From the sequence record PV523736.1: DNA of 64,000 nucleotides. One strand, 5' to 3'. This DNA is from Enterococcus phage ZJGS3. Position 1 is the stretch's first letter, and every line of letters starts with the position of its first letter. This document shows, piece by piece, positions 6,601 to 7,303 of this stretch. Position numbers and translations under genes: made by a program. The notes beneath the pieces were generated by a model. It was not told the DNA's origin and ran no database searches. It saw only the letters and a list, made by a program, of their open reading frames with translations.

Positions 6601-7303
6601 AGTAATACAAGTCTGGTTAAAAACTCAAAACTTAATAGATTAAGGGCTTTTCTTCCTGCTTCATATACACTCACTGCATTCGGTCACATACTCAGAGAGG
6701 CTGAACCATCGGGAGCTACCCAATAGCTTCTCTCTGCCTTTAATGTATGGTCTAGCACGGTGGCTAACAACGTTCACCTAAACATTCAGCATTAAAAGTA
6801 TTATTTTACATATAACCCATATGTCTTCTGTAATATTTTCATCCAACGCTGACTTAAGCTACTTGTACCAAGGTCTCTTGTTAAACCTGTATTTCTACAG
6901 TTCTCGTCAAAGGGAGTCTTTTGAGTTTTCCAAGGTCTGCCAAGCTTCTCACACTTCCACCTAACTTGGATTCTTTTCCACAGGAACGTCTATTGTATCC
7001 CCCAAGAGTCTTGTACCTTACAATCCATGTATACTCCACATAACGCTTAACTGATATTAGCTTTTACTAATAGTTACTCCTATGTTACCATAAGACCTAC
7101 CTGCAACCCAAAGCACTATCGCACCTTCGGTTACATCCAGATTCACGCCACGTTATCCTAGCAAGCTGTTCAAACTTTCTGCACTAGGTTCAAAATCTAT
7201 TAAGTTTTCAATTTTTAACCACTAACTTGTGGTGTAATACTAATATAGCATAACATTACAAAGTTGTAAACACCTTTTTGTAAGTTTTTTTGATTTTTTT
7301 TGA

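Follow-up and report, generated by a model that had tools for sequence, protein, structure and literature searches.

A ROOL-family RNA in the tRNA/tmRNA array of a virulent Enterococcus phage

In 2017, Weinberg et al. presented ROOL (short for Rumen-Originating, Ornate, Large) as a complex RNA, about 581 nt long, frequently found in prophages and near tRNA genes (PMC5737381). It is encoded by phages and prophages, often beside tRNA islands, and cryo-electron microscopy in 2025 revealed that it forms a protein-free, closed, hollow homo-octamer about 28 nm across, with its variable linker disordered inside the cage (PMC12286853). Enterococcus faecalis (Efa) ROOL, of 580 nt, occurs as monomers, tetramers and octamers, and the ROOL of Lactobacillus salivarius as hexamers (PMC12990946). 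A pre-tRNA and other RNA cargos can be fused to its 3' end; they are presented on the outside, and the cage is left undisturbed (PMC12515178). One ROOL of L. salivarius is stable, outnumbers 16S rRNA and can be dispensed with; its deletion showed no clear function (PMC5643018). Here we analyse a stretch of 64,000 nt of Enterococcus phage ZJGS3 (PV523736.1), called the window hereafter and providing the coordinates used throughout. Its interval 6601-7303 encodes a ROOL-family RNA inside the tRNA/tmRNA array of a virulent phage, a reading to which we give a probability of about 0.96.

The window is identical to the sequence of Enterococcus phage EfV12-phi1 (MH880817.1, with window position 1 at record position 48499), a Schiekvirus of the Brockvirinae (Herelleviridae) whose GenBank record has nothing annotated in the interval. 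An earlier inspection of the letters (the sequence-only reading) had described 6601-7303 as a non-repetitive segment between tRNA-Met and tRNA-Ser with no tRNA inside and no open reading frame (ORF) of 60 codons or more, and had offered three explanations for it: a structured non-coding RNA, a degenerated gene, or a leader or processing region. The absence of long ORFs is confirmed, the longest overlapping ones having 52 amino acids (aa) (6881..7039, minus strand), 47 aa (6821..6964, plus strand) and 40 aa (6921..7043, plus strand). This absence alone is what one expects of any non-coding DNA. The absence of tRNAs inside the interval holds as well. We considered a hidden tRNA or intron and rejected it, given that ARAGORN and Rfam (E ≤ 1) find only ROOL inside. 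Rfam places both flanking tRNAs on the minus strand, whereas ARAGORN calls the tRNA-Ser at 7302-7393 and misses the other. The interval is non-repetitive in having zero direct repeats, but it does contain a 20-nt T-rich tandem (7285-7304) and one 28-nt inverted repeat, which is the closing helix of the ROOL RNA. Its GC content, 0.37-0.43 in 300-nt windows, is like that of its surroundings, and the plus-strand GC skew is strongly negative (-0.20 to -0.34), so that the minus strand is G-rich.

Identity of the RNA and conservation of its structure

The sequence-only reading had proposed an Rfam scan as a check. We compared window positions 1-12000 with all 4227 Rfam families at E ≤ 1 and obtained, at 7212-6626 of the minus strand, a full-length match to ROOL (RF03087). 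With 260.1 bits (E 5.9e-59), the match exceeds the gathering score of 99.1 by a factor of 2.6, and it runs end to end, from model position 1 to 574 of 574, without truncation. Over the model, the copy measures 587 nt, the family mean being 581. It lies on the strand of all tRNAs of the array (20 tRNA/tmRNA genes by ARAGORN) and of the tmRNA at 810-1160. ROOL is the only family matched over 6614-7221; apart from it, only tRNA-Ser and a sub-threshold plastid motif (7304-7358) overlap the interval, and they just reach its upstream edge. The minimum free energy of the folded RNA is -181.7 kcal/mol (z-score -5.58 relative to shuffled controls), and the covariance-model match and the fold are both far beyond chance.

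The RNA is widespread among related phages. A blastn search matched the interval in 67 phage records, 66 of them named Enterococcus phages and one the unclassified 'phage ENP2309'. About 30 Schiekvirus records align over the whole interval at 95-100% identity. In about 36 phiEF24C-like (Kochikohdavirus) records the identity is about 89%, and the similarity is limited to query positions 91-687 (window 7213-6617), essentially the ends of the RNA, with the flanks unaligned. Phage Revolver matches at 71% in the same search. Rfam finds a full-length ROOL in Porthos, vB_Edu_21C1, EF24C and Revolver (243-267 bits). A search pattern made of two motifs (ACAAUAGACG and GGUACAAGUAGC) retrieved eight more loci with 208-268 bits: six IMG/VR viral contigs and two Saccharofermentans metagenome-assembled genomes. 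Pairwise identity to the window copy ranges from 99% down to 48% (EF24C, 89%; the viral contigs L006 and L007, 88% and 71%; Revolver, 67%; Saccharofermentans, 48%). The scan of bacterial genomes with this strict pattern returned only the two Saccharofermentans genomes and thus says little about the spread of ROOL in bacteria. The copies in L006 (IMGVR_UViG_2541047546_000003, 667-1248) and L007 (IMGVR_UViG_2904347011_000002, 10378-10956) lie on contigs of 27-36 kb that may be prophages, judging from contig size and UViG naming alone, and may reflect exchange of ROOL between different Enterococcus phages.

We projected the 154 nested base pairs of the Rfam structure line, which contains nested pairs only, onto a MAFFT alignment of nine sequences. 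Standard pairs occupy 78.5% of the cells, compared with 36-45% when the 3' partners are slid by one to three columns, and none of 500 shuffles reaches any of the observed pairing measures. Changes on both sides are seen in 66 of the 154 pairs, and 130 are canonical in the window sequence by itself. The helices are thus kept by compensatory substitutions across phage genera and distant bacterial copies. The comparative alignment that had been suggested to separate covariation from decay shows covariation, and of the three original explanations the structured non-coding RNA is the correct one.

This evidence bears on the other ways of explaining the interval. It could be an inert leader or spacer in the tRNA operon, there only to supply the neighbouring tRNAs with a promoter and processing sites. 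Such a spacer would account for the promoter-like site in the interval and for the lack of a terminator-like site before the downstream tRNAs (Table 1), and the remaining tRNA spacers of the array are likewise non-coding. However, the other spacers without an annotated gene are mostly shorter than 250 nt, the conservation lies in the 590-nt RNA and not in the promoter region, and the complexity of the fold and its covariation go beyond the needs of a processing spacer. The same RNA is moreover present in bacterial genomes and in L006 and L007, where no tRNA was found in the ~0.5-2 kb downstream. We hold a passive spacer to be very improbable. What survives of the leader/processing explanation is a minor element, the apparent co-transcription with the downstream tRNAs.

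Two further explanations invoke proteins, and both have to face the fate of the small ORFs. In the first, the interval is the remnant of a decayed gene, e.g., a homing endonuclease or a small phage gene, that drifts neutrally; long ORFs are indeed absent, HNH endonuclease genes insert nearby in related phages, and several GenBank records place 'hypothetical protein' coding sequences (CDSs) over the region. In the second, one or more proteins of fewer than 60 aa are encoded there, as would fit the ORFs of 29-52 aa present on both strands and the small CDSs annotated over ROOL in the records of PEF1, EF24C, MDA2 and KEN. We mapped six ORFs of 28-52 aa on the alignment of the relatives and found that none is open in all ROOL-bearing relatives: all are broken by frameshifts or stops in EF24C, L006, L007 or Revolver, with frameshifts and one to five internal stops already at 71-89% nucleotide identity, while the RNA is intact at 243-268 bits. 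These broken frames exclude both a conserved small-protein gene, whose discovery the sequence-only reading had named as a refutation, and a decaying one. The annotated CDSs are all unnamed 'hypothetical' proteins, save one in PEF1 labelled 'phosphatidate cytidylyltransferase', a label we judge implausible; none of the phage records inspected annotates an RNA gene over ROOL. Against decay in particular stand the full-length match to a structured-RNA model, the compensatory nature of the helix substitutions, and a conservation of 89% between genera with unalignable flanks, which is not what neutral decay produces. The degenerated gene of the sequence-only reading is therefore rejected, with zero conserved reading frames and a cross-genus homology confined to the ends of the RNA, and we see hardly any chance for either of the protein-based explanations. 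Least credible of all is another large RNA class that merely resembles ROOL (GOLLD, a group I or II intron, RNase P RNA), even if GOLLD shares the phage and tRNA-array context and introns are common in Herelleviridae, because ROOL is the sole family over 6614-7221 among the 4227 and matches end to end at 2.6 times its gathering score.

The ROOL reading is left with all the testable features that define the family: model score, covarying structure, core motifs, variable linker and genomic context, the last being an Enterococcus phage in which the RNA sits between tRNA-Ser and tRNA(CAU) in an array of more than 20 tRNAs and a tmRNA. This is a known RNA class, part of Rfam ever since it was described in 2017, rediscovered in a typical setting, and its novelty is accordingly low. 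The GenBank phage genomes of March 2024 were searched with the Rfam ROOL model by Kretsch et al., so phage instances such as the window copy were presumably already collected.

Anatomy of the RNA and variation at its borders

The features of the locus are listed in Table 1. The inverted repeat and the cofolding of the flanks extend the closing helix P1 by about 12 bp past each end of the Rfam model, so that the element spans 7221-6614. In the window, UGGUUAAAAAUU (7221-7210) pairs with AGUUUUUAACCA (6625-6614), and the whole helix amounts to about 27 bp, interrupted by a single G-G mismatch. Pairing of the extension recurs in every one of the seven lineages that we cofolded, EF24C, Revolver, L006, L007 and Saccharofermentans among them, with differing sequences: it reads GCUUUUGAUAAUU/AGUUAUUAAAAGC in EF24C and UUUGACAACUUC/GAAGUUGUUAAA in Saccharofermentans. 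A motif AGUU(U/G/A)UUAA lies immediately past the model end in all lineages examined.

Table 1. Features of the ROOL locus, in window coordinates.
Feature	Position	Strand	Basis and remarks
ROOL RNA gene including extended closing helix P1	6614..7221	-	608 nt; RF03087, inverted repeat and cofolding
P1, 5' strand	7194..7221	-	93% complementary to 6614-6641; 7213-7221 outside Rfam model
P1, 3' strand	6614..6641	-	6614-6625 (AGUUUUUAACCA) outside Rfam model
GUAA-capped helix (GNRA)	7091-7082	-	window sequence
Core motif ACAAUAGACG	6987..6996	-	matches upper-case consensus positions of RF03087
Conserved motif GGUACAAGUAGC	6858..6869	-	just 5' of variable linker
Variable A/U-rich linker	6791..6853	-	least conserved, indel-rich columns ~410-472; aligns to the model's long unstructured loop
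Hairpin tip GGGUAGCUCCC, candidate kissing loop	6711..6721	-	self-complementary AGCU in loop
Promoter-like site	7242..7270	-	-35 TTTACA (7270-7265), 17-nt spacer, extended -10 TGcTATATT (7250-7242)
tRNA-Ser(GCU), directly upstream	7304..7392	-	Rfam and ARAGORN
Spacer from ROOL 3' end to next tRNA	6601..6613	-	13 nt, without terminator-like site
tRNA(CAU), directly downstream	6529..6600	-	Rfam tRNA, 43.4 bits; tRNA-Met in GenBank; missed by ARAGORN
First downstream terminator-like hairpin	5945..5966	-	after tRNA(CAU), tRNA-Asp, tRNA-Glu and tRNA-Met

Several core motifs are conserved to the letter. The motif AAUAGACG is invariant in all nine aligned sequences, including those that are 48% identical overall; GUAGC, CUGAAUG, GUGAA and UCAG are likewise unchanged all the way from the window to the copies in Saccharofermentans, and GGUA and AAAAGC sit in invariant columns of the same alignment. 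Outside the columns marked invariant are C6996 and A6995 of ACAAUAGACG and C6865 and A6864 of GGUACAAGUAGC. In the hairpin loop at 6721-6711, the window shares UAGCU with Porthos, L010, EF24C, L006 and Revolver, and L007 has UAGCG. Judged by helix order, this loop may correspond to L15-L15'', a kissing loop of 4 bp reported in Efa ROOL (PMC12990946). The variable linker is probably disordered and faces the interior of the cage, if the window copy behaves as the solved ROOL does (PMC12286853).

The borders of ROOL vary among Schiekviruses. In several of them, an insertion of 501 nt directly follows ROOL (L003, i.e., Porthos, at 1278-1803; also L002, L008, L009 and L011, and partly L010). On each side of it stands one copy of a 46-nt stretch of the ROOL 3' end, in direct orientation (L003 1244-1289 and 1745-1790), so that P1 has two alternative 3' strands. 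We rejected the idea that the insert is a known or strongly structured RNA (no Rfam match at E < 0.1, fold z-score -1.7); its ORFs are short and unconserved. In some Schiekviruses, an HNH endonuclease gene of 192 aa (phage 113, L015 1201-1779; phiSHEF16, L016 1700-2278) lies just upstream of ROOL, where EfV12-phi1 has its tRNA-Ser. With an HNH gene beside it, ROOL has borders that look like a hot spot for the insertion of homing endonucleases.

Predicted transcription unit, assembly and possible role

The promoter-like site matches 10 of 12 positions in a consensus scan, carries the TG of an extended -10, and lies about 29 nt upstream of ROOL, with a predicted start near 7235. EF24C has a similar site (TTGACA-18-TGcTATTAT) in the flank that blastn leaves unaligned, 28 nt instead of 29 from ROOL position 1, and this like distance lends moderate support to a dedicated promoter. 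We consider it rather likely that ROOL has a promoter of its own. The lack of a terminator-like site between ROOL and the next tRNA suggests a joint ROOL-tRNA transcript, and co-transcription with the downstream tRNAs is about as likely as the promoter; the hairpin after the fourth downstream tRNA would then mark the end of the transcription unit.

The first of these tRNAs is atypical. The tRNA(CAU) folds into a cloverleaf, with an A/A mismatch or a bulged A in its acceptor stem, and its copy in Porthos, which bears the label tRNA-Pseudo-CAT, reaches only 35.5 bits. A functional Met or Ile2 tRNA is one possibility for it, a mere signal for the processing of ROOL another.

From these elements and from the solved relatives, we propose the following course of events. 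The host sigma-A RNA polymerase would start near 7235 from the extended -10 promoter and read through ROOL, tRNA(CAU), tRNA-Asp, tRNA-Glu and tRNA-Met to the hairpin at 5966-5945. RNase P, cutting at the 5' end of the tRNA(CAU) (6600), would free a ROOL that keeps a short 3' tail and so set its 3' end, and the long P1 duplex would protect both RNA ends. The RNA would fold as a flat multi-junction monomer, as its relatives Efa ROOL and env-120 do (PMC12286853, PMC12990946). Eight copies would self-assemble without protein into a hollow cage of about 28 nm through kissing loops and A-minor contacts, with the linker pointing inward and P1 and the 3' end outward. The window copy has the features expected from the solved ROOLs (an A/U-rich linker, a GUAA-capped helix and an AGCU hairpin loop), and the palindromic AGCU gives indirect support, being consistent with the reported self-pairing kissing loop. 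That the RNA forms an octameric or similar cage in infected cells thus seems quite probable by homology.

What such a cage would do can be proposed only tentatively. Our literature search found neither a published function for ROOL nor RNA-seq of Enterococcus Herelleviridae phages. Our preferred option is a role on or with the phage-borne translation apparatus, i.e., the tRNAs and the tmRNA. The RNA might be an abundant scaffold or container, or it might act as a decoy that draws away host factors directed against the tRNAs of phage or host. Among the hypotheses on function we give this one a chance well below even, and no specific biological role deserves more. A bolder version is improbable: ROOL would be the head of a promoter-driven ROOL-tRNA precursor, and the eight outward P1/3' ends of the cage would display tRNA(CAU) and the pre-tRNAs that follow it. 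If this were true, the cage would be a platform to process, store or protect phage tRNAs, e.g., against host anticodon nucleases, or a decoy. It would then be the first function for any ROOL and would explain why ROOL and GOLLD recur in tRNA arrays.

Several points weigh against this account or parts of it. Some projected helices pair poorly (41% for helix 24, 56% for helix 26), although the value of helix 24 probably reflects a one-base register shift of the cmscan alignment, as the window sequence has an obvious CAGAGAG/CUCUCUG stem there. The promoter scan is weak on its own, with 9 sites found and 7.4 expected in shuffles, and no comparably good promoter lies at that distance in Revolver, L006 or L007. 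The promoter, the extent of the operon and the processing steps are all predictions from sequence. The stoichiometry of the cage varies in the family, with a hexamer in L. salivarius and an octamer in others. Finally, the link to translation comes from gene neighbourhood only, and L006 and L007 lack any tRNA detected within ~0.5-2 kb downstream of their ROOL.

The finding has practical consequences. In the phage records inspected, ROOL is either missing or covered by spurious 'hypothetical protein' CDSs, and these annotations need correction. EfV12-phi1 and phiEF24C-type phages have hosts with tractable genetics and are used in phage-therapy work. An unannotated ROOL in such culturable lytic phages offers a direct route to testing ROOL function, and the extended P1, the promoter distance and the adjoining tRNA provide concrete predictions of the native transcript ends that should be useful for the design of constructs.

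Other parts of the neighbourhood also deserve mention. The tmRNA (810-1160, minus strand) matches RF00023 with 145 bits and encodes the tag peptide AKNEELLAVA*; the GenBank record lacks it and has an overlapping plus-strand 'hypothetical protein' CDS (record 48879-49601, window 381-1103). Between tRNA-Val and tRNA-Arg, an unannotated tRNA-like element of 96 nt (3200-3295, minus strand) scores 33.3 bits in Rfam, with ARAGORN silent. Its acceptor, D and T arms look normal and its anticodon region is oversized; it could be a degenerate tRNA or one with an intron. The very AT-rich segment 7801-8100 (GC 21-24%), just upstream of the array, comes with several minus-strand promoter-like sites (7924-7896 and 8106-8078) and a terminator-like hairpin (8175-8155), and may be the control region of the array. 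Over window positions 7700-64000, no Rfam family reaches its own gathering score. Further along, the annotation splits the large terminase subunit (window ~10328-13453, plus strand) into two CDSs (record 58826-59887 and 61361-61951) that enclose a further ORF, an arrangement that suggests the presence of an intron or intein carrying a homing endonuclease.

Comparison with known systems

The pRNA of phage phi29 is an RNA of ~120-174 nt whose pentameric ring on the portal belongs to the DNA-packaging motor. Like ROOL, it is a phage-encoded symmetric homo-oligomer held together by intermolecular loop-loop pairing (mentioned in PMC12990946). Its fold is unrelated to that of ROOL, for which there is no evidence of a tie to packaging.

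GOLLD RNA (Rfam RF01998), reportedly described by Weinberg et al. in 2009, is large and ornate like ROOL, belongs to phages and prophages, occurs beside or within tRNA arrays and self-assembles into RNA-only cages, but its sequence and secondary structure are unrelated, it exceeds 800 nt, and it forms 10- to 14-mers. In some GOLLDs a tRNA lies within the linker, whereas ARAGORN and Rfam find no internal tRNA in the ROOL of the window; the GOLLD covariance model has no match at E ≤ 1 in window positions 1-12000.

Within the Herelleviridae, Staphylococcus phage K (Kayvirus) encodes two long non-coding RNAs, lnc001 and lnc002, by its tRNA genes and upstream of the terminase region, and lnc001 has the top read count on its strand and an early promoter of its own (PMC9241854). 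This is the arrangement that we predict for the ROOL of the window, and the likeness is positional only: we considered the phage K RNAs as ROOL homologues and rejected this, with no ROOL match in 13000-39600, a range that covers both lncRNA regions (Rfam, E ≤ 0.01). The regions themselves (phage K, L014, 13632-13768 on the minus strand and 37679-38650) match neither ROOL nor GOLLD. One of them has a near-threshold match to DUF3800-I RNA (43.4 bits, gathering score 44.2), and the gap of ~970 nt upstream of tRNA-Asp, without Rfam match, may hold an undescribed RNA class.

The closest systems remain the ROOLs themselves (RF03087; env-120 and Efa by cryo-electron microscopy, PDB 9MDS, 9J3T). The window copy resembles them in model match, length, motifs and linker, as well as in its GNRA-capped helix, palindromic hairpin loop and phage and tRNA-array context, and it shares with Efa ROOL an Enterococcus-associated lineage. 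It differs from the Rfam model in a closing helix that is about 12 bp longer on each side, and from Efa ROOL, described as chromosomal, in its location in a virulent Herelleviridae phage. Finally, in contrast to the solved ROOLs, the window copy apparently has its own promoter and abuts an atypical tRNA(CAU).

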